Source: Candidatus Heimdallarchaeota archaeon B3_Heim
GTDB taxonomy: Archaea > Asgardarchaeota > Heimdallarchaeia > Hodarchaeales > Hodarchaeaceae
DNA: 9,019 nucleotides
NCBI GenBank assembly: GCA_003144275.1
Contig: NJBF01000076.1
Location: 1-9,019, forward strand
Direction of reading: 5' to 3'
The notes beneath the pieces are model-generated. The model worked only from the letters and a program-made list of their open reading frames with translations. It was not told the DNA's origin and did no database searches. Position numbers and translations under genes: made by a program. Shown here piece by piece: positions 373 through 9,019 of the stretch. Position 1 is the first letter of the stretch. Every line of letters starts with the position of its first letter.

Positions 373-1041
373 TCAAATTAAGCTTTGTATATCCTCAATC
401 GCTGCAGAGGTAATCCAGCTTACCTTTGTATACACTTTGCGAATCATAAGATTCTTATCAATCAACATACTTAGCCAGGAATGAATTAGAATACTTGGTT
501 CGGTTTCATTTTCATGTGACACTTTATAGGAAATGGTATTATTATTATCAGTAACATTAGCTAATTCTTCAAGTTCATTTGTATATGACAGGACCCCATA
601 GTCATCAACCACATGGCGTATGGTAGCTAAGTCATATGCTGTGAGAAATTGCCACCCTGTAAAGTTGACACCATAAGATAAGGCGTAGTTTTTTAATACT
701 GAGGGAGTGTCAAACAAAGGATCTAATGTAATACAAATAAGCATAACGTCCCTACCGAATGAAGAACCAAAAGCCGTCTGAATCTTTGTGAATTCATAAG
801 TCATCAAATCACAAAAATCATCGGTACAACTAGTATAAATAAATCCAAGCATTATGACCTTTCCTGAGAACTGTTGCAACGTAACTGTTTCATTATCCTG
901 ATTTATCAATGTAAAATCAGGAGCAGGTTTAATATTAGGAAGCATTTGATTCTGACTCAAGGGATAAAGCACGAATGCTGTGCCTACTCCTGCTAAAATC
1001 ATAATACTGATCGCCATTCCAACAATCGTGCTTTGTTCCAT
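373..1041 (-). CDS. sco: SCO1/SenC-family copper chaperone for CuA assembly
   Basis: Single N-terminal TM anchor, then APDFTLINQD and GKVIMLGFIYTSC-x4-C, ITLDPxxDTPxVLKxYA, WxFLT, and the conserved distal His in ILIHS. It lies directly downstream of the cox genes. Confidence 0.93.
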   Translation of the reverse strand: MEQSTIVGMAISIMILAGVGTAFVLYPLSQNQMLPNIKPAPDFTLINQDNETVTLQQFSGKVIMLGFIYTSCTDDFCDLMTYEFTKIQTAFGSSFGRDVMLICITLDPLFDTPSVLKNYALSYGVNFTGWQFLTAYDLATIRHVVDDYGVLSYTNELEELANVTDNNNTISYKVSHENETEPSILIHSWLSMLIDKNLMIRKVYTKVSWITSAAIEDIQSLI

Positions 1042-1072: not shown

Positions 1073-1423
1073 TTAAATTCCACATAAATAGACAATTGTA
1101 CCCAAGGCTGGAATCATAACCACGGGTAAAGCGATGAACATGGGAATTCCAAACATTACTCCATATACAACCTTGGGGTTTTCTTGGTACTTAATACCCA
1201 TAAAGAAAGCAGCTACCAAATATACTTTCAATAAAGCCAGAGTAATAAGTGCTAAATTAATATATCCTTCCACATTTGCACCTTCTCCAGCTATTTCAGA
1301 GATAAATCCAATATTTAATTCTAAAATCGTTAATAATCCCAATGTAAGAAATACAATAAAATAAGGGCGTTTGACATACTCATGAGAATTTACAGTTTCT
1401 ATTTGTGTTGCCATTTTTACCAT
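1073..1423 (-). CDS. coxD: Prokaryotic cytochrome c oxidase subunit IV family protein (CtaF/CyoD-like)
   Basis: 116 aa with 3 TM helices. The pattern YxxVFxxLxxLTxLE...LAxxKxxLVxxxFMx(I/L)K matches COX4_pro. It starts 18 nt after the subunit I stop. Confidence 0.8.
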   Translation of the reverse strand: MVKMATQIETVNSHEYVKRPYFIVFLTLGLLTILELNIGFISEIAGEGANVEGYINLALITLALLKVYLVAAFFMGIKYQENPKVVYGVMFGIPMFIALPVVMIPALGTIVYLCGI

Positions 1424-1441: not shown

Positions 1442-2977
1442 CTATACTGTGGGAAGTTCATCAATAGCCAGATTAAACGGATCATCACCTGCTGGTGGAC
1501 CCTTCCGGATGCTATAAATCATATTAATTACGAAAATGACTCCTGAAATAAACATTATATATGCCCCAACCGTTGCTAGGAAGTTCCAAAAAGCTAAGAC
1601 ATCAACGTTGCTAAAGGTTGAGTAATCAAAATACCTTCGAGGCATTCCATGCATCCCTGCGATCATCATAGAATTGAAGGTCGTCAAGAACCCAATAATC
1701 CACATGAAACAATGAACCCATGCAAGATTACGATGGTACATTTTGCCAGTCATTTCAGGGAAATAGTTATAGAAAGCACCAATAAGAGCAGTGAGAGCCC
1801 CACCTAAGATAATCATGTGAAAATGACCAACAACAAAAGCTGTATCATGTACAATGATATCGACTGGAACTATGTTCAACCATACTCCAGTAAGCCCCCC
1901 AATTACAAAACCAATAATAAAACCAAAAGGAAATACAATTGGTACCTCCAACTTGATCCTGCCTCCCCACATGGTCAGCAACCAGTTGAACGTTTTAATT
2001 CCAGAAGGAACAGCGATAAGCGAGGTTATTATGGAAAAAAGTGTTGTAGTAAATGCATCAGTTGCTGCACCATAGAGAGTATATTGGTGATGACCCCAAA
2101 CGAGAAATCCGAGGAAAGTAATGACCATCAATGATACTACCATCGATTTGTATCCAAATATCTCATTACGTGAGAACTTCTGTACCATCAGTGATGTTAA
2201 ACCCATGGCTGGTAGAATCATAATATATACAGCGGGATGGGAATAACTCCAGAATACGTGTTGCCATAGGAACGATCCCACACCAAAACCAACTGCTGAA
2301 AAGAAAGCGGTATCAAGAATGCGGTCAGATAGTAGAAGTGCTAATCCAGTTGTAATTAAAGGAGTTGCACATAATTGAATGATTGAAGTAGCCACAATGG
2401 ACCAACTAAATAAGTCAAGTTTTCCCCAGGTTAGCCCAGGTTTACGCATGGATGCTATGGTCATGATAAAATTGATAGCTGAAACTAAAGAAGATACTCC
2501 TGCGAGTAATACACCGATAATCCACATATCTACACCCACACCCCAAAGTTCTGCACTCAACGGTGTGTATAATGTCCAGCCTACAGATGATTGGGCAAAA
2601 AAGATTAGAAATCCAGCTGGTATCAATAACCAGAATGCCGCATTATTCCATCGCGGCCAGTACATATCAGGAGCTCCAATTAATTTCGGTATAAGATAAT
2701 TCCCAAAACCTGCTCCTAAGGGAAAAATCACCATGAAAATCATAATTGTTCCATGAGCAGTAAAAATAATTGAATATAATTCAGCATCGACTATTGTAGC
2801 ACCTGGAAATGCCAATTCTGTTCTCAGAATTAATGCTAAGATACCACCAATAAATACACTTATGATGGCTAAGACTATGTATAGAATTCCAATTTCGGCG
2901 TGATTTGTTGTTCCAATCAGGGTTCTCCAATTTTTATAGAAAGGGGGATGTGTTGTTTCTGTAATTTTTCTCACCAA
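1442..2977 (-). CDS. coxA: Heme-copper oxidase subunit I, A-family, A2 subtype (aa3-like cytochrome c oxidase)
   Basis: All six metal-ligand His are present: H75 (TAHG), H247 (YSHPAVY, with cross-link Tyr251), H296/H297 (WGHH) and H385/H387 (GHFH). D-channel D104/N111/N112, K-channel K328, HDT, GMPRRY and GWTLYTPL are also present. Start is TTG at 2977 or GTG at 2974. Confidence 0.98.
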   Translation of the reverse strand: MVRKITETTHPPFYKNWRTLIGTTNHAEIGILYIVLAIISVFIGGILALILRTELAFPGATIVDAELYSIIFTAHGTIMIFMVIFPLGAGFGNYLIPKLIGAPDMYWPRWNNAAFWLLIPAGFLIFFAQSSVGWTLYTPLSAELWGVGVDMWIIGVLLAGVSSLVSAINFIMTIASMRKPGLTWGKLDLFSWSIVATSIIQLCATPLITTGLALLLSDRILDTAFFSAVGFGVGSFLWQHVFWSYSHPAVYIMILPAMGLTSLMVQKFSRNEIFGYKSMVVSLMVITFLGFLVWGHHQYTLYGAATDAFTTTLFSIITSLIAVPSGIKTFNWLLTMWGGRIKLEVPIVFPFGFIIGFVIGGLTGVWLNIVPVDIIVHDTAFVVGHFHMIILGGALTALIGAFYNYFPEMTGKMYHRNLAWVHCFMWIIGFLTTFNSMMIAGMHGMPRRYFDYSTFSNVDVLAFWNFLATVGAYIMFISGVIFVINMIYSIRKGPPAGDDPFNLAIDELPTV

Positions 2978-2989
2978 ATCAATGTTTAA

Positions 2990-3652
2990 TTATTTTACGA
3001 CGATTTTTGCTTCCATAGAATAGTGCCCAAATCCACAATATTCAGCACAGTGTACCTCATATGTACCTGGAATAGGTACCTGTAAGTAAATAATATTATA
3101 TCTTCCTGGAACCATATCCAGCTTAATACTCAGTTCATGTGCGTAGAAAGAGTGAATGACATCAATAGATGTGATATTAAACATGTATATTTTGTTAACT
3201 TCTATATGAACGATATCTACACTACGAGAACCATTTTCTCTAACAAATGTGAAATTATATTGATACGCAATGACCAAAATTTCTTCATCATAGTCCTCTC
3301 GTTCACTGAAATACGAAGTAGTCGCAGGTAAACTGGCAACAAATAAGGATAATACGATGACTGTCGCAAATATGACCCATCCTATTTCTAAGCGCATTTC
3401 ATTTTGGATTTTTTTTCGAACAGTCTTATTTCCTTCCCTGAATCGAAATACAATATAAATTAGCATTCCAAATACGAGTGATGCAATAAATATCGAAACC
3501 AATATGACCAATGTTAATAGAAACTCAATTTGTGGGGTATATGTGGAATCTGTGGGAGAAGCTCTGGTGGAAATAACATGCTCAACCATGAATAACCCGA
3601 ATATCAAACTACCCAATGAGATTTTATATTTACGTTTCATATTAATTTTCAC
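2990..3652 (-). CDS. coxB: Cytochrome c oxidase subunit II with CuA site and no fused cytochrome c
   Basis: Signal-like N-terminus, two TM helices with the K-channel entry Glu (LEIGW), DVIHSF, and CuA motif CAEYCGFGHYSM (H167, C202, E204, C206, H210, M213). No CxxCH. The true start is probably ATG at 3640. Confidence 0.97.
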   Translation of the reverse strand: MKINMKRKYKISLGSLIFGLFMVEHVISTRASPTDSTYTPQIEFLLTLVILVSIFIASLVFGMLIYIVFRFREGNKTVRKKIQNEMRLEIGWVIFATVIVLSLFVASLPATTSYFSEREDYDEEILVIAYQYNFTFVRENGSRSVDIVHIEVNKIYMFNITSIDVIHSFYAHELSIKLDMVPGRYNIIYLQVPIPGTYEVHCAEYCGFGHYSMEAKIVVK

Positions 3653-3668: not shown

Positions 3669-5120
3669 CTATATTAAATAAACCAGTGTAAACAGAACGA
3701 TCCACACTAAATCGACAAAGTGCCAATAGAGTCCAACTAACTCTAATCCCGCATGGTTTTCTTTTGTAAACCCACCTTGATGAGCTCTAAGTGTAGTAAA
3801 TATAACTAGAAGGACTCCAAAGAACACGTGCGCCCCATGAAGCCCTGTTTGCACATAAAAAGTTGACCCAAACAAATTGGTTGTGGGAGTAAAGTGGTGG
3901 CCAAATAACTCTAAATACTCTGATACTTGAATACTAAGGAAAAGGCTTCCTAATCCAGCAGTTGCTAAAAGATAATTACGGGATATTTTTTGGTTACCTT
4001 GTTTTATTGCATCCACTGATTTTACCATCGTGAAACTGCTGATAATTAAGATAAATGTATTTACTGCCGTTAAAGGAATATTCAAGATTTGGCTTTGATC
4101 TGGCCATTCAGCGCCAGAAGCAACACGAAGCCCGAAAGACGTCCCAATAATCATAGAAAACAAGATCACTTCACTACCTAGGAACAACCACACCCATCCT
4201 TCCTTCGGCCTTTTGAAGAGCTTTTGGGTGAATGTTTCGTTGAAAATAAATGCCAGCAGGAGAATGAAGAATGTCCAGAAAAACCCAAATGCTGCCAATA
4301 CATTATCATCGGTAAAATTTATGATTGCTGCGGCGACAAGTACTGTGCCAAGAGCTAAAGCTGCAGGCCAGAGAGTAACTTCATGTTCTTCATGTGACCC
4401 CTCTCCAGGTGGTTCTATATGTGGTGGCTTTTTGGAAAAACCAGCAAAAACTGTTAGAAATACTATGGCTAATGTTCCAACAAGAACTATTGGTGTTAAT
4501 GCCCCCTCCATTGTTCCACCTGGTAGCATTTCCCCCATTATTGGGATATCTGTGATCAAAGTTCCCCCATAAACGCGGAGTGCTCCCGCTCCTGACACTA
4601 ATGTTAAGAGAAGGTACCCTAAAATTTGACTAAGAATATACACGATCCAAAATAAATAGTGTTGACTGAAGAATCGTTCTTTTCTATAGCTGACGAAATA
4701 TATACGCAATGCTATAGCAAAAAGGAAGTAAGAGGTACCGATTATGGCCCAAATGACCTTATATCCTAAAATTGTACTGAGACTTGCTTCTGATATCCCT
4801 GCAGCTAAATTATCAAAATTAATATATCCAATACCGACATTTCCAGAAGCATCTAAAAATCCAGCTACTCCTGCGACAGCTAACGTCACAATTCCGTAGA
4901 TAAGGAACATAAATGCAACAAATTCAAATTTATCAGCGTAAGTTCGGCATGTACGTTGATCCATAAGTTCTCTTCCCCGAAAAACTTTTTTCACCTTTTT
5001 GCGATTGAAAAAGTCTGTTCTCTCAAATGCAGCAACTATAATTGCTACAAGGAATGTGAATACGCTCAATGCCAAATTAGCGATATGAAAATGTAAGACT
5101 ATTGGATGTAATTCAGCCAT
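3669..5120 (-). CDS. coxC: Cytochrome c oxidase subunit III (full 7-TM form) fused C-terminally to a ~230 aa 5-TM DUF2231-like domain
   Basis: The C-terminal half has TLWP (W251), FLGSEVILF, LNIPLTAVNTFILIISS, QVSEY, TGLHGAHV and YWHFVDLVW, all COX3 motifs. The N-terminal half has LHPIVLHFHIA, AGVAGFLDA and SGAGALRVYGG, resembling DUF2231 (HPxxVHFPI...GGxLVY). COX3 is certain; the DUF2231 assignment is moderate. Confidence 0.9.
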   Translation of the reverse strand: MAELHPIVLHFHIANLALSVFTFLVAIIVAAFERTDFFNRKKVKKVFRGRELMDQRTCRTYADKFEFVAFMFLIYGIVTLAVAGVAGFLDASGNVGIGYINFDNLAAGISEASLSTILGYKVIWAIIGTSYFLFAIALRIYFVSYRKERFFSQHYLFWIVYILSQILGYLLLTLVSGAGALRVYGGTLITDIPIMGEMLPGGTMEGALTPIVLVGTLAIVFLTVFAGFSKKPPHIEPPGEGSHEEHEVTLWPAALALGTVLVAAAIINFTDDNVLAAFGFFWTFFILLLAFIFNETFTQKLFKRPKEGWVWLFLGSEVILFSMIIGTSFGLRVASGAEWPDQSQILNIPLTAVNTFILIISSFTMVKSVDAIKQGNQKISRNYLLATAGLGSLFLSIQVSEYLELFGHHFTPTTNLFGSTFYVQTGLHGAHVFFGVLLVIFTTLRAHQGGFTKENHAGLELVGLYWHFVDLVWIVLFTLVYLI

Positions 5121-5908
5121 TATAGATCACCAGTTTTTAGATCATAATCAGTCTTCGGAGGGCGCCCTTTACTATCTACATAGATTAACAAACCAGTTAA
5201 GGTTACGAAAAAGGCCAAGGCTAATATAAACGCTTGACTGAAATCATATTTCAAGATACTAGCGCCTTTTAAATTCCAGAAAATCGTTCCTCGACTCACA
5301 CCTGCATGCTGATCCAAGAAATTGTCTGTGGTCCCATATGCCCAGATTATTGTAATTTCTCCCACTAATGGAATGGTATTATCATAATCAGTATCTGATG
5401 TAACAATATTCCGTTCAAATTCAATAATAGTTGTTTGGTCACTTTCGCTCCCATTAAAAGCGAGAATATTGTCTTGTCCACCTAATTCAGTATCGGGTGG
5501 ATGGGGACCGTAGTCCCCAATACTAAAAGCATCTATCATACTAACCGTACCATTAGAACTAATCCACCCAAAATACATATCAGCATCCTTCATTCTGACA
5601 GATGGATCTATACCAATTGCTACCCACCCAGTAGTTTGTACTTCCATTGCAATAAAGATTGTATTTTCATCTGTAGCTTGCCAATGAAGGATAAAATTGT
5701 CTTCATCAATACTTTGCTTATTTGAATACTCTCCATGATTGATAACGCCATCCAGCACACTCTCAGATAATTTATTTGGCGTTGCTTGTATAGAAACAAC
5801 TGTAGAAGTAATCATTAACATAAACACCAAAAAATGTAACATTTGTCTATAATTCGTATTTATTCGTAATTTGGTACCATGTAGCTTGTTCATTGCAGAA
5901 ATCTCCAT
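5120..5908 (-). CDS. Secreted, C-terminally membrane-anchored DOMON-domain protein, putative heme b (Met/His) binding
   Basis: Signal peptide ending ...VSIQA, then LHW, GWVAIG, M106-KDADMYFGW, EFER, IIWAYG and H201, then a C-terminal TM helix (AFILALAFFVTLTGLLIYV). Its TAA overlaps the coxC ATG by 1 nt (TAATG at 5122-5118). Confidence 0.88.
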   Translation of the reverse strand: MEISAMNKLHGTKLRINTNYRQMLHFLVFMLMITSTVVSIQATPNKLSESVLDGVINHGEYSNKQSIDEDNFILHWQATDENTIFIAMEVQTTGWVAIGIDPSVRMKDADMYFGWISSNGTVSMIDAFSIGDYGPHPPDTELGGQDNILAFNGSESDQTTIIEFERNIVTSDTDYDNTIPLVGEITIIWAYGTTDNFLDQHAGVSRGTIFWNLKGASILKYDFSQAFILALAFFVTLTGLLIYVDSKGRPPKTDYDLKTGDL

Positions 5909-5950
5909 CGGGGGTTATATTTTTGGTGCAGAGGACGAAAAAATCATCAT

Positions 5951-6343: not shown

Positions 6344-7501
6344 ATGAGTGAACAGAAGCATAGTAACCAATTCCATTCTAGTAACTATGCCATTTTCTTT
6401 CATGATCTTCAAGGAAAAATCCTTGATATTGACCAAAAGGGATTAGAGCTTTTTGGATACACAAAAGCAGAGATTTTTAATTTAAAAATTTCTGATCTAC
6501 ATCCTCCCGAATTTCTTGAAGAATCGAAACGAGCATTTGATACGATCACAAAAATGGGGTATGTAGATTTTGAGATTGACTTTCTGAAAAAGGGTGGTGA
6601 AGTATTTTCTGCAGAAGCCTCCTCAAGAATATTTGATATTAGCGGGGAAAAGGTTATTCAAGGTATTGTACGAGATATCACAGAACAAAAAAGAGTGAAA
6701 GAAACATTACGAGCATCAGAAGAAAAATATCGAACCCTTCTCGAAAATATAGAAGATAGTTATTATGAGGTAGATCTAGCTGGTAATTTTACCTTTTTCA
6801 ACAAAAATTTGCCCAAGATTTTGGGATACACTGAAAAAGAAATCATGGGAATGAATTATAGACAATACTGTAGTGAATCAGTCGCTATACAGGTATTAAA
6901 GGCATTCAATGACGTATACGTAACAGGAAAACCAGTAAAAGAGTTTGAACTGAAATTTATTAACAGAGATGGTGCAACAAGGTATTCAGAGGTGTCTATA
7001 TCTCTCATACTTGACTCTTCAAGAAAAAAAAATGGATTCAGAGGGATAATTCGTGAGACTTCTGAACGAAGAAGAGCTGAAATTGCATTACAGGAAGCTA
7101 AAGAAAAATATCAAATGCTCATTAATAAAATGGAGGAAGGGGTTGTATTAGAGGATTCCCAAGGTTTCTTCACCTTCACTAATCCCCAAGTAACGAGCCT
7201 ATTAGGATACGAAGAAGAAGAATTAATCGGTAGGCACTGGTCAGATTTTATTTCACCTGAATCTTTGGAAATGGTTAAAAGTGAGACGGCTAAACGAAAG
7301 GAAGGCTTCAGTAGTAGATATGAGACAGTAGCATTAGGAAAAAATGGCAAACGAATACCGATAATAGTAACTGCAACTCCTATTCATTCCAAGAAAGATG
7401 ATTTTGAAGGTGTCTTAGTAGTTTTCACTGATATCTCAAAACTGAAAAATGTCTCAAAGTTTCAAAAAAAAATCATCCAAAAACAGTTTGAAAGTTCCTG
7501 A
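6344..7501 (+). CDS. Triple PAS/PAC sensor protein, probably the truncated N-terminal part of a sensor kinase or similar
   Basis: Three PAS repeats (LFGYT..EI, ILGYTEKEIMG, LLGYEEEELIG), each ending in a PAC motif (IVRDITEQK, IIRETSERR, VFTDISKLK). The first two are joined by SEEKYRTLLE/AKEKYQMLIN linkers. There is no HisKA, GGDEF or REC domain, and the last ~17 residues are not linker-like. Confidence 0.9.
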   Translation: MSEQKHSNQFHSSNYAIFFHDLQGKILDIDQKGLELFGYTKAEIFNLKISDLHPPEFLEESKRAFDTITKMGYVDFEIDFLKKGGEVFSAEASSRIFDISGEKVIQGIVRDITEQKRVKETLRASEEKYRTLLENIEDSYYEVDLAGNFTFFNKNLPKILGYTEKEIMGMNYRQYCSESVAIQVLKAFNDVYVTGKPVKEFELKFINRDGATRYSEVSISLILDSSRKKNGFRGIIRETSERRRAEIALQEAKEKYQMLINKMEEGVVLEDSQGFFTFTNPQVTSLLGYEEEELIGRHWSDFISPESLEMVKSETAKRKEGFSSRYETVALGKNGKRIPIIVTATPIHSKKDDFEGVLVVFTDISKLKNVSKFQKKIIQKQFESS

Positions 7502-8399: not shown

Positions 8400-9019
8400 T
8401 TATAATGTAGGGTTTAAAACGCGCGAATGAATAGTAATTTCTTTAGTTGAAGGATCTTGTAACACTGCGACTATGTCTCTGTCTTCTGGAAAAGTTACAT
8501 TCAAGGCACTAGCCGCATTCATAGCGTCAGTAGCTGATATATGTAAAGGGTCCCCAGCACGTAGCCGAAGGTATTTACAAGTTATTTCCTCGTCCGAAGA
8601 AGTTGATGATGACGGAGGTGTTGGAAGGCGTCGTTTAGGACGTCTAGTCGAAGGTTGTTTCTTAGAGGGTGGACGATTTGAGTTGATTATTGGTATGAGC
8701 GGCGATAATCGTTTTGGAGGCTTACGTTGTCGGGAAGAACGACGAAGGACTGTTGGTTCTTCAAGACCCGACAGTGATTCGGCTTTGGACGCCGAGTGAA
8801 CTTTCAACACTGGCGGAGGAGTATCCGCAAGTGTCAGGTTCGGAGGTGAATGAGAACCTTGTGAAGGGATAGATTCCACAACAGGGATGCCCGACAACTT
8901 TGGCAAGTTGATATCACGTGGCGCTGGAACAGGATCAGTAATCTGATGGTGATGTTGTATGGTTGGTTGATCCGGAGATAAATTCATCTTACATCCATCC
9001 GGGTGTAGTTCCACTGCAT
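8400..9019 (-). CDS. C-terminal part of a larger eukaryote-type ORF, probably a retrotransposon Pol/integrase tail (runs off the right edge)
   Basis: The frame stays open upstream of the GTG called as start (GCA-GTG-GAA), so it is 5'-partial. It is Pro/Ser/Arg-rich and looks disordered, contains LRRSSRQRKPPKRL, and ends in a ~60 aa folded-looking segment. GC is ~46% by hand count (275/600), higher than the cox genes. Confidence 0.6.
   Translation of the reverse strand, partial: AVELHPDGCKMNLSPDQPTIQHHHQITDPVPAPRDINLPKLSGIPVVESIPSQGSHSPPNLTLADTPPPVLKVHSASKAESLSGLEEPTVLRRSSRQRKPPKRLSPLIPIINSNRPPSKKQPSTRRPKRRLPTPPSSSTSSDEEITCKYLRLRAGDPLHISATDAMNAASALNVTFPEDRDIVAVLQDPSTKEITIHSRVLNPTL

Follow-up and report, generated by a model that had tools for sequence, protein, structure and literature searches.

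A DOMON-domain protein is a candidate haem-b electron donor to the CuA oxidase of a Hodarchaeales archaeon

Introduction

How electrons reach the haem-copper oxidase of Hodarchaeales bears directly on whether these archaea respire O2. A recent study from the Imachi lab found no discernible electron route to Cox in Hodarchaeales and on that ground argues against O2 respiration, while granting that proteins not yet characterised could provide one (10.1101/2025.02.26.640444). The window analysed here, a contig stretch of 9,019 nucleotides from Candidatus Heimdallarchaeota archaeon B3_Heim (NJBF01000076.1), carries an oxidase operon headed by a gene for a DOMON-domain protein, and raises the question of whether that protein could be the missing donor. 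The DOMON/oxidase gene neighbourhood was already mentioned, in one clause, by Appler et al. 2024; beyond that work, no paper that we found connects a DOMON protein with a haem-copper oxidase.

Results

Gene and operon layout

The DOMON gene (5120..5908, minus strand) is a real open reading frame of 262 codons from the ATG at 5908, with 435 nt of non-coding DNA on its 5' side. The true start is probably M6 (ATG 5893-5891, minus strand; 257 residues), because most orthologues begin MN(K/R) and a TATA-like box, AAAAATATAA (5915..5924, minus strand), lies ~26 nt 5' of that codon in archaeal promoter geometry, a spacing that makes a leaderless transcript possible. If M6 is the start, the residue numbers used here, which count from the ATG at 5908, drop by 5.

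As the initial annotation held, this is the lead gene of the oxidase operon, the first of six tightly clustered minus-strand genes in the order DOMON-COX3-COX2-COX1-COX4-SCO1. Its stop codon shares one base with the start codon of subunit III (TAATG, 5118..5122, minus strand), an arrangement that indicates translational coupling. Subunit III is a fusion in which a helical membrane domain of ~240 residues (4401..5120, minus strand; weakly DUF2231-like, with H5, H10, D90-A91 and K121 conserved) precedes a linker and the COX3 part in the same reading frame (3669..4400, minus strand; PF00510 over residues 310-482). The remaining genes, on the same strand, encode CoxII (2990..3652), without a fused cytochrome c; an A2-type CoxI (YSHPAVY; 1442..2977) that has the motifs bearing the His ligands of haem and CuB; subunit IV (1073..1423; profile match to COX4_pro); and a SCO1/SenC-like copper chaperone (373..1041), which closes the operon. 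Rfam and tRNA scans of the window returned no matches.

This gene order is conserved down to ~50% identity, and the DOMON gene lies immediately 5' of an extended subunit III in 8/8 genomes. Read from the genes alone, first position in a same-strand cluster, the TAATG overlap and this invariant synteny are what co-transcription and stoichiometric synthesis with the oxidase would predict. No DOMON was found at the oxidase loci read in other Heimdallarchaeia, and all eight DOMON-type operons come from one GTDB genus, so the co-occurrence of DOMON and subunit III extension, the altered CuA entry residue described below and the lack of cupredoxins may all have been inherited once, not acquired in independent events.

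Domain, fold and membrane topology

The profile search called for by the initial annotation gave a match to PF03351 at E 3.3e-27 and 95.6 bits (cut-off 32.7) over model positions 2-124 of 124, confirmed on the genome, and places the DOMON core at residues 69-192 (5333..5704, minus strand). PF03351 is the only domain in the chain; it lacks the cytochrome b561 domain that would make it a CYBDOM protein, and PF09459 (EB_dh) gave no match at E <= 0.01. An N-terminal hydrophobic segment, residues 24-42 (5783..5839, minus strand), ends with SIQA ahead of a T and overlaps a helix in the AF2 model (18-34). It was first described as a signal peptide; by hydropathy it is either that, cleaved, or a signal anchor, both of which fit and both of which would leave the DOMON domain facing outwards. 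At the other end, the proposed anchor is borne out by a hydrophobic helix at residues 225-244 (5177..5236, minus strand; KD mean up to 2.48) directly followed by a basic cytoplasmic tail, DSKGRPPK (5153..5176, minus strand), which is conserved at 64% identity. The helix is better conserved than the domain that it would hold, with mean pairwise identities among homologues of 71% for the helix, 65% for the core and 31% for the signal segment. By the sequence rules of topology the domain therefore lies on the same face of the membrane as CuA, in agreement with the original proposal. No Heimdall-CTERM or PGF-CTERM sorting signal was detected in residues 210-262. The genome's DOMON paralogue, P0090, has a Heimdall-CTERM-type sorting tail (NF045529, E 7.8e-5; 22.9 bits, below the cut-off of 24).

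Upstream of the core, the motif DGVINHGEY (residues 53-61; 5726..5752, minus strand) is kept almost without exception, with G54 and E60 in 30/30 homologues and D53 and Y61 in 29/30. It had been read as a strand; the motif stands, but DSSP on the AF2 model assigns no strand to residues 53-61. The model as a whole has a pLDDT of 82.7, lower (77-82) in the loop that carries H201. In structural alignments with VIA-align, its best single match is the DOMON domain of DBH (4zel; Z 15.3, rmsd 2.4, 142 residues aligned), with which it shares a beta-sandwich fold. Haem-b DOMONs follow, namely the CDH cytochrome domain (Z 13.2-13.3, rmsd 2.9, 155-156 aligned), EBDH gamma (Z 13.2), PDH cytochrome b (Z 12.9) and NxrC (Z 12.4), whereas the sugar-binding CBM9 reaches only Z 8.8.

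Candidate haem ligands

Ligand conservation was counted in 30 homologues of the protein and in 84 domain copies of its subfamily. Both residues singled out by the initial annotation proved to be correctly placed. M106, a putative axial ligand (5591..5593, minus strand), sits in the VRMKDADM loop and is present in 30/30 homologues and 82/84 domain copies; the putative second axial ligand, H201 (5306..5308, minus strand), follows IIWAYGTTDNFLDQ and is present in 29/30 homologues and 83/83 domain copies. The M106 loop is acidic: D110 is invariant (84/84 domain copies), and D101 and D108 also flank the Met. The two residues are 95 apart, which compares with a spacing of 84 in HYP1 (PMC10784544). 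In CG8399 the corresponding Met and His are 93 apart.

When residues 40-215 of the model are aligned to CDH 1-175, M106 and H201 fall within ~2 residues of CDH Met65 and His163, which we take to be the axial ligands in 1D7C; this mapping is by aligned ranges only, because sequence and profile searches of PDB sequences returned nothing relevant. A conserved Met and a conserved His thus occupy both axial-ligand loops, which is the mark of the haem-b DOMON class. Neither sugar-binding DOMONs nor DBH have the pair (PMC10691727), in line with the earlier statement that it distinguishes haem-binding from sugar-binding members. The fold, too, is closer to the haem-b DOMONs than to CBM9. The protein keeps the haem-b ligand pair, which suggests that it binds haem.

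A second histidine, H136 in a GPHPPD motif (5501..5503, minus strand), was overlooked in the initial annotation and is as invariant as H201 (29/30 homologues, 83/83 domain copies). It could be the true ligand in place of one of the pair, a further ligand, or a residue of a different metal site.

CuA and the electron donors encoded in the genome

All CuA ligands of CoxII are intact (H167 and C202-x-E-x-C-x3-H-x2-M, the latter at 3049-3014). The electron-entry Trp of A-type subunit II is replaced by Tyr (Y132; 3257..3259, minus strand), and the same substitution is found in 7/7 DOMON-type operons, whereas Trp is retained in 6/6 others. In the 94%-complete genome, PF00034, PF13442, PF00127, PF00355, PF00033 and PF03188 had no match, so that no class-I cytochrome c, cupredoxin, Rieske protein or cytochrome b was detected and no cytochrome b561 (PF03188) rose above the cut-off. 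Neither cupredoxins nor class-I cytochromes c occur across 22 genomes of the genus, including two that carry the other operon type. Across the class, a cupredoxin is found in 7 genomes and a class-I cytochrome c in 1, all in lineages outside the genus, and the oxidase operons read in those lineages have no DOMON. The genome does encode one pentahaem c-type cytochrome together with c-maturation genes, and this cytochrome may be an alternative electron donor to the oxidase.

A preprint reports that a Hodarchaeales CyoABCD, which may or may not be of the DOMON type and was expressed without a DOMON protein, showed activity as a ubiquinol oxidase but not with horse cytochrome c; the assay used E. 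coli membranes containing native quinol oxidases, as the authors note (10.1101/2025.11.07.685452).

The subunit III extension and its predicted contact with DOMON

The extension is a rare four-helix N-terminal membrane domain with conserved His, Asp and Lys. Its only Pfam match is a weak one to DUF2231 (E 0.2), a family for which our literature search returned a single mention, in a cysteine-annotation database paper that is silent on function. Fold searches of the ESM Atlas and PDB gave nothing more specific than helical bundles of a generic kind (best Z 10.5) and clusters without a name, and alignments to the bundle of COX3 itself, cytochrome bd, b561 and a designed di-haem binder gave Z 8.3-9.1, below the level that is meaningful for helical bundles. 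Stand-alone homologues have uninformative gene neighbours (an MFS transporter, TetR, PRPP synthase and a PALP enzyme).

A complex of extension residues 1-300, haem and DOMON residues 43-262 was predicted with a median ipSAE of 0.59 (runs 0.59, 0.81 and 0.58) against 0.01 for the best control, a weak pass of a mark reached by 58/80 solved complexes and 2/110 mismatched pairs; among these passes, only 7 of the 80 solved complexes and both mismatches scored 0.60 or below. Half or more of the contacts (at least 50%) recur between runs, and the partner pLDDT is 74 or higher.

The subfamily beyond the oxidase operon

Relatives at 40-55% identity are fused to cytochrome b561, either singly or with 5-7 tandem DOMONs, and archaeal members are among them. 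None of the 27 hits to longer proteins is a fusion to an oxidase subunit; they consist of b561 fusions and of arrays of several DOMONs. Methanogens that lack any oxidase have members of the subfamily as well, for example Methanogenium marinum, where the gene stands alone, so the DOMON fold is not specific to oxidases.

Discussion

A haem-b donor to CuA

We consider the DOMON protein the best candidate for the protein that supplies electrons to the Hodarchaeales oxidase, and put the probability that it is a haem-b electron-input subunit reducing CuA at roughly 0.55. This reading is favoured because of the conserved ligands, the fold matches, the b561 fusions in the subfamily, the translationally coupled operon position, the intact CuA site with its altered entry residue and the lack of a detectable canonical donor in the genome. 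The protein would be an extracytoplasmic b-type cytochrome with its iron held by M106 and H201, anchored by its conserved C-terminal helix as a dedicated accessory subunit of the A2-type, CuA-containing oxidase. Made together with the extended subunit III, it would probably sit on the extra four-helix domain and pass single electrons from its haem to CuA of subunit II, taking the role filled elsewhere by cytochrome c, a fused c domain (caa3) or a blue copper protein. Its own electrons might come from quinol through the subunit III extension, or from an outside donor such as the pentahaem cytochrome. The sequences themselves show what the domain is, that its ligands are conserved, its topology by sequence rules, and the structure and conservation of the operon; that the protein binds haem, associates with the oxidase and passes electrons in this direction, and where those electrons originate, we infer by computation.

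A more specific version, in which DOMON and the four-helix domain form a self-contained input module that draws electrons from quinol in the membrane, or from some other donor there, and relays them by way of the DOMON haem to CuA, is put forward only tentatively.

Several known systems resemble the proposed one. The cytochrome domains of CDH and pyranose dehydrogenase (1D7B/1D7C, 4QI3 and 6JT6) share the DOMON-type beta-sandwich (Z 12.6-13.3) and carry Met and His in equivalent loops at similar spacing, although neither they nor any other PDB chain matches the Asgard protein at the sequence level. The fungal cytochrome is an extracytoplasmic domain with one haem b that delivers single electrons to a copper enzyme, LPMO, much as proposed here; it is tethered to a flavodehydrogenase, whereas the Asgard DOMON has its own transmembrane helix, an oxidase operon and CuA, not LPMO, as its proposed acceptor. 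EBDH gamma (2IVF_C), NxrC (7B04_C) and the Pfam family EB_dh are DOMON-superfamily haem-b wires for electron entry to or exit from respiratory enzymes. These type II DMSO-reductase-family gamma subunits use Met/Lys ligation, and they partner molybdoenzymes, not haem-copper oxidases. The fused cytochrome c of caa3, sulfocyanin and halocyanin share the proposed job and the side of the membrane, but their folds are unrelated, and they hold haem c or type-1 copper where the Asgard protein is predicted to bind non-covalent haem b in a beta-sandwich. Elsewhere in the Heimdallarchaeia the oxidase comes with a cupredoxin gene; in G043:C376, for example, the two share a contig and a strand. The CYBDOM/AIR12 proteins (HYP1, CRR and SDR2/CG8399) share the Pfam DOMON domain, outward orientation and membrane anchoring, as well as a Met in an acidic loop with a downstream His (PMC10691727, PMC10784544), and archaeal members of the Asgard protein's own subfamily carry the same b561 fusion. 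The Asgard protein itself lacks b561, its apparent membrane partner being the unrelated four-helix domain on subunit III, and its proposed acceptor is the oxidase instead of Fe(III) or Cu(II).

Alternative readings

Kinship with CYBDOM proteins, which reduce ferric and cupric substrates (PMC10784544), raises the prospect of an outward haem-b metalloreductase that would not feed CuA in turnover but would act on an external substrate such as Fe(III) or Cu(II), in the latter case supplying the Sco-like chaperone with Cu(I) for the assembly of CuA/CuB. The Sco-like gene at the end of the operon fits this, as do the occurrence of the subfamily in organisms without oxidases and the likeness of D101, D108 and D110 around the Met to the SxDxxMGxD pocket of CG8399, a suggested metal site (PMC10691727). 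Such an enzyme would need an electron source just as the CuA donor does, the altered CuA entry residue would go unexplained, and first position, translational coupling and a highly conserved transmembrane helix are more readily reconciled with a stoichiometric subunit than with an assembly factor; we regard the metalloreductase role as quite unlikely. A different possibility, also unlikely, is that the oxidase works in practice as a quinol oxidase, with electrons entering through the membrane, perhaps by way of the subunit III extension, and with DOMON left to a peripheral task: structure, protection, sensing, or electron uptake from extracellular donors or the pentahaem cytochrome. The ubiquinol activity of the DOMON-free CyoABCD points this way, and so do the conserved His, Asp and Lys of the membrane bundle and the weak predicted docking of DOMON on it. 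Against it, CoxII has every CuA ligand, whereas the established A-family quinol oxidases (CyoA/QoxA) have lost CuA, and the supporting assay is clouded by the host's own quinol oxidases and concerns an operon that may not be of the DOMON type.

That the closest structural neighbour, the DBH DOMON, is haem-free could mean that the Asgard protein also lacks haem and is a surface ligand-binding or adhesion domain, or binds another metal through M106, H136 and H201; the conserved Met, two His and Asp residues would suit a copper site too, and homologues are encoded in a Methanogenium genome, a group usually described as lacking cytochromes. We judge this improbable, as the Met/His pair that is invariant here is missing from DBH and sugar-binding DOMONs (PMC10691727), fusion to cytochrome b561 makes sense only with a redox cofactor, and the CBM9 matches are far weaker. 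The initial annotation had grouped electron donor with haem carrier or chaperone. The donor role is now the best supported of these, on computational evidence, and we found nothing in favour of the other two beyond the operon position and a predicted haem pocket. Haem O and A are synthesised within the membrane, and their insertion proceeds from there or from the cytoplasm (CtaA/CtaB/Surf1), so an outward-facing beta-sandwich is on the wrong side to deliver haem to subunit I; six-coordinate Met/His ligation is typical of electron carriers and not of transfer proteins, and the b561 fusions likewise indicate electron transfer. A chaperone for the oxidase, rejected on topology, is thus very improbable.

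Significance and related observations

If the DOMON protein does donate electrons to CuA, it offers a concrete, cloneable candidate for the missing route to Cox and makes the question testable. Among DOMON cytochromes it would probably be the first with a demonstrated role in serving a haem-copper oxidase, and it would tie the DOMON/b561 redox module, typical of eukaryotes, to archaeal respiration. Should the full input module exist as well, a CuA oxidase in Hodarchaeales would run without complex III, cytochrome c or a blue copper protein, and the module would be both a prokaryotic parallel to the logic of eukaryotic CYBDOM proteins, in the archaea most closely related to eukaryotes, and the piece that has been missing from the dispute over O2 respiration by Hodarchaeales.

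A search of sequencing runs found no RNA run and one marine-sediment DNA run (share 0.19). In the same genus, EB_dh proteins with the same layout as the DOMON protein, a signal and a C-terminal transmembrane helix, lie 2-5 kb from the other type of oxidase operon.

A DOMON gene heads a CuA oxidase operon

The source genome comprises 3.95 Mb in 103 contigs and is 94% complete; the window is its entire 9,019-bp contig C92. ORF and Pfam reading of the window places six closely packed genes on the minus strand, encoding the DOMON protein (5908-5120, PF03351), a 483-aa subunit III that matches PF00510 on residues 310-482 only (5120-3669), CoxII (3652-2990), CoxI (2977-1442), subunit IV (1423-1073) and a SCO1-like protein (1041-373). 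The DOMON and subunit III genes overlap at TAATG, which holds the stop codon of the first and the start codon of the second. CoxI carries the motifs bearing the haem and CuB histidine ligands and contains YSHPAVY, the mark of the A2 subtype. The CuA ligand set is complete in CoxII (H167, then C202-A-E-Y-C-G-F-G-H-Y-S-M), and the chain stops seven residues past this motif and is therefore without a fused cytochrome c. The Sco-like protein has CTDDFC (CxxxxC; 811-828, minus strand) as against the canonical copper motif CxxxC, a spacing also found in two Sco-like orthologues (CSDEFC and CTDDLC). A divergently transcribed three-PAS protein without an output domain (6344-7501, plus strand) lies 435 nt from the operon and is possibly an oxygen or redox sensor for it. 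The contig end (7502-9019), which may be chimeric, consists of ~900 ORF-free nucleotides and then a 204-aa Pro/Ser/Arg-rich ORF of higher GC (8400-9014, minus strand); a Pfam search with this ORF gave no match, and Rfam and tRNA scans of the window found nothing.

The DOMON protein is assigned by sequence to the haem-binding class

The initial annotation described a surface-anchored, haem-binding DOMON protein, and each element that it listed lies where it was placed in the 5908-5120 ORF. Translation puts M106 at codon 5593-5591 and H201 at 5308-5306, hydropathy marks an N-terminal hydrophobic segment at residues 24-42, and the C-terminal helix spans residues 225-244, followed by the tail DSKGRPPK. 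One feature stands in part: the DG..EY motif is present as DGVINHGEY, but the AF2 model has no strand call for that stretch. Numbering is from ATG 5908; M6 (5893-5891) is more likely to be the true start, because most orthologues start there and a TATA-like box lies ~26 nt upstream. By the positive-inside rule, the domain is predicted to face outwards, the side on which the CuA domain also lies, as annotated.

The protein belongs to the DOMON family (PF03351 HMM search, E 3.3e-27), with its nearest homologues in Hodarchaeales (Asgard) MAGs; a PDB sequence search gave no match. [quoted passage not shown] Model residues 40-215 align to CDH 1-175, and M106 and H201 therefore fall within ~2 residues of CDH Met65 and His163, the haem ligands of that domain. 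Across 30 aligned homologues, M106, G54, E60 and D110 never vary, and 29 of the 30 retain H201; H136, missed by the initial annotation, lies within an invariant GPHPPD motif and is as conserved as H201. M106 occupies the loop D-P-S-V-R-M-K-D-A-D, 95 residues from H201. The literature bears out the Met/His pair as a signature, conserved in haem-binding DOMONs and missing in sugar-binding ones and DBH (PMC10691727); the Met of animal CYBDOMs (DOMON plus cytochrome b561) lies within an acidic SxDxxMGxD loop (PMC10691727), and the ligands of HYP1 are M90 and H174 (PMC10784544). By sequence criteria, the protein is placed in the haem-binding DOMON class. It is a member of neither the CYBDOM nor the EB_dh family.

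Operon distribution and canonical electron donors

The order DOMON-COX3-COX2-COX1-COX4-SCO1 recurs on further Hodarchaeales contigs, down to ~50% DOMON identity. With the subunit III protein as query against 83 Heimdallarchaeia genomes, the full-length form with its ~240-residue N-terminal extension was found in 8/83, all from one GTDB genus and all eight with a DOMON gene immediately upstream. In the remaining genomes with an oxidase, the arrangement is COX2-COX1-COX3-COX4 or includes a COX1/3 fusion, and DOMON is absent at the oxidase loci read from them.

Cytochrome c passes electrons to a subunit II Trp in A-type oxidases, and CoxII Tyr132 (3257-3259, minus strand) occupies this position. 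Tyr is found there in 7/7 DOMON-type operons, in the context (Y/Q)-(Q/K)-Y, and Trp is kept in 6/6 other Heimdallarchaeial operons. The source genome (94% complete) gave no match to class-I cytochrome c (PF00034, PF13442), plastocyanin-type cupredoxin (PF00127), Rieske (PF00355), cytochrome b (PF00033) or b561. Genes for c-type maturation are present. A single multihaem c-type cytochrome was found in this genome, a 474-aa pentahaem protein (contig C58, 12077-13501, minus strand; locus L015, 6078-7502) with five CXXCH motifs and a signal-like N-terminus, encoded near a Cytochrom_C_asm gene; it may be an extracellular electron carrier.

Class-wide, cupredoxins occur in 7/83 genomes and class-I cytochrome c in 1/83, all in outside lineages and none in the 22 genomes of the source genus. 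DOMON is absent from the oxidase operons read in those lineages, in which one cupredoxin gene shares contig and strand with the oxidase. This complementary pattern fits donor replacement; all DOMON-type operons are in one genus, so it may reflect a single evolutionary event. Two same-genus genomes with the other operon type likewise lack cupredoxin and class-I cytochrome c and have EB_dh-family proteins (DOMON-superfamily, haem-b) that share the signal-plus-TM layout of the DOMON protein and are encoded downstream of the oxidase, at a distance of 2-5 kb. At locus L053 of G061, a genome of this genus, two EB_dh (PF09459) proteins (12800-13702, plus strand; 15685-16623, minus strand) have a signal peptide and a C-terminal TM anchor and are encoded downstream of an oxidase operon of the other, DOMON-less type, 2-5 kb away.

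Subunit III extension and membrane anchor

The extension (4401-5120, minus strand) belongs to a very small family: a search of 1.84 billion proteins gave 17 cluster representatives, most of them stand-alone proteins of 220-260 aa. Its only family match is a weak one to Pfam DUF2231 (E 0.2), and fold searches with its model, a helical bundle, found no convincing structural relative. The conserved residues (H5, H10, F11, D90-A91 and K121) are predicted by topology to cluster at the outer membrane face. Complex prediction of extension, haem and DOMON gave a median ipSAE of 0.59 (runs 0.59, 0.81 and 0.58; best control 0.01), with at least 50% of contacts common between runs and partner pLDDT of at least 74. 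The pass mark is met by 58/80 solved complexes and 2/110 mismatched pairs, and passes at ipSAE ≤0.60 comprise only 7 of the 80 solved complexes plus both passing mismatches. By itself the prediction weakly supports an extension-DOMON contact; with gene coupling and co-occurrence as a prior, it is counted as mild support.

Among oxidase-linked DOMON orthologues, identity is 71% in the TM helix, 65% in the domain and 31% in the signal segment. A second DOMON protein in the source genome (contig C85, 3937-4737, minus strand; locus L017) shares 47% identity, keeps the Met and both His, and adjoins a TauE/SafE exporter and a flavoprotein (pyridine-nucleotide) disulfide oxidoreductase; its C-terminus is a Thr-rich linker and then a Heimdall-CTERM-like sorting tail. 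Given the helix conservation and this different tail, the oxidase-linked anchor looks like a specific packing helix rather than a generic tether.

Proposed function and alternatives

The DOMON protein would be a membrane-anchored haem-b cytochrome that, working with the novel subunit III domain, serves the CuA oxidase as a dedicated electron-input subunit, which we consider the most likely reading (probability about 0.55). A cultivation preprint on Hodarchaeales reported neither a mechanism to channel electrons into Cox nor any cytochrome c, cytochrome f or blue copper protein, and conceded that proteins not yet characterised might take on this task (10.1101/2025.02.26.640444). The oxidase might instead be quinol-fed, with DOMON in a side role: recombinant Hodarchaeales CyoABCD made without a DOMON protein reportedly used ubiquinol and not horse cytochrome c (10.1101/2025.11.07.685452). 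This arrangement seems unlikely, and marginally more so is an outward metalloreductase for copper delivery, in an operon that also encodes a SCO1-like protein. A non-haem domain is less probable again; the top structural match, DBH, lacks the Met/His pair retained here. Service as a haem chaperone appears very improbable.

The operon neighbourhood is already in print, mentioned by Appler et al. in one clause without analysis; beyond that study, a literature search found no paper tying DOMON to a haem-copper oxidase. The proposed role of the DOMON protein offers a concrete, testable answer to a live question, that of oxygen use by eukaryotes' closest relatives.

Archaeal relatives with cytochrome b561 domains

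Many archaeal proteins of the same subfamily (40-55% identity) consist of one DOMON plus a cytochrome b561 membrane domain, mostly from Thermoplasmatota MAGs, and others carry a tandem array of five to seven DOMONs on a single b561 domain; no DOMON-oxidase subunit fusion was found among the homologues checked. Across 84 domain copies, M106 is retained in 82/84 (Lys in 2), H136 and H201 each in 83/83 and D110 in 84/84. These architectures lend separate support to the haem-binding assignment. Each tandem DOMON would carry a redox cofactor, because a chain on a di-haem transmembrane cytochrome would otherwise be senseless. Ten such Thermoplasmatota MAG proteins (P0063-P0072; 1,063-1,471 aa) have 5-7 tandem DOMONs that retain Met, His and His in nearly all copies, with a cytochrome b561 domain in most (6/10 by Pfam), and these arrays look like an extracellular electron wire of b-haems.
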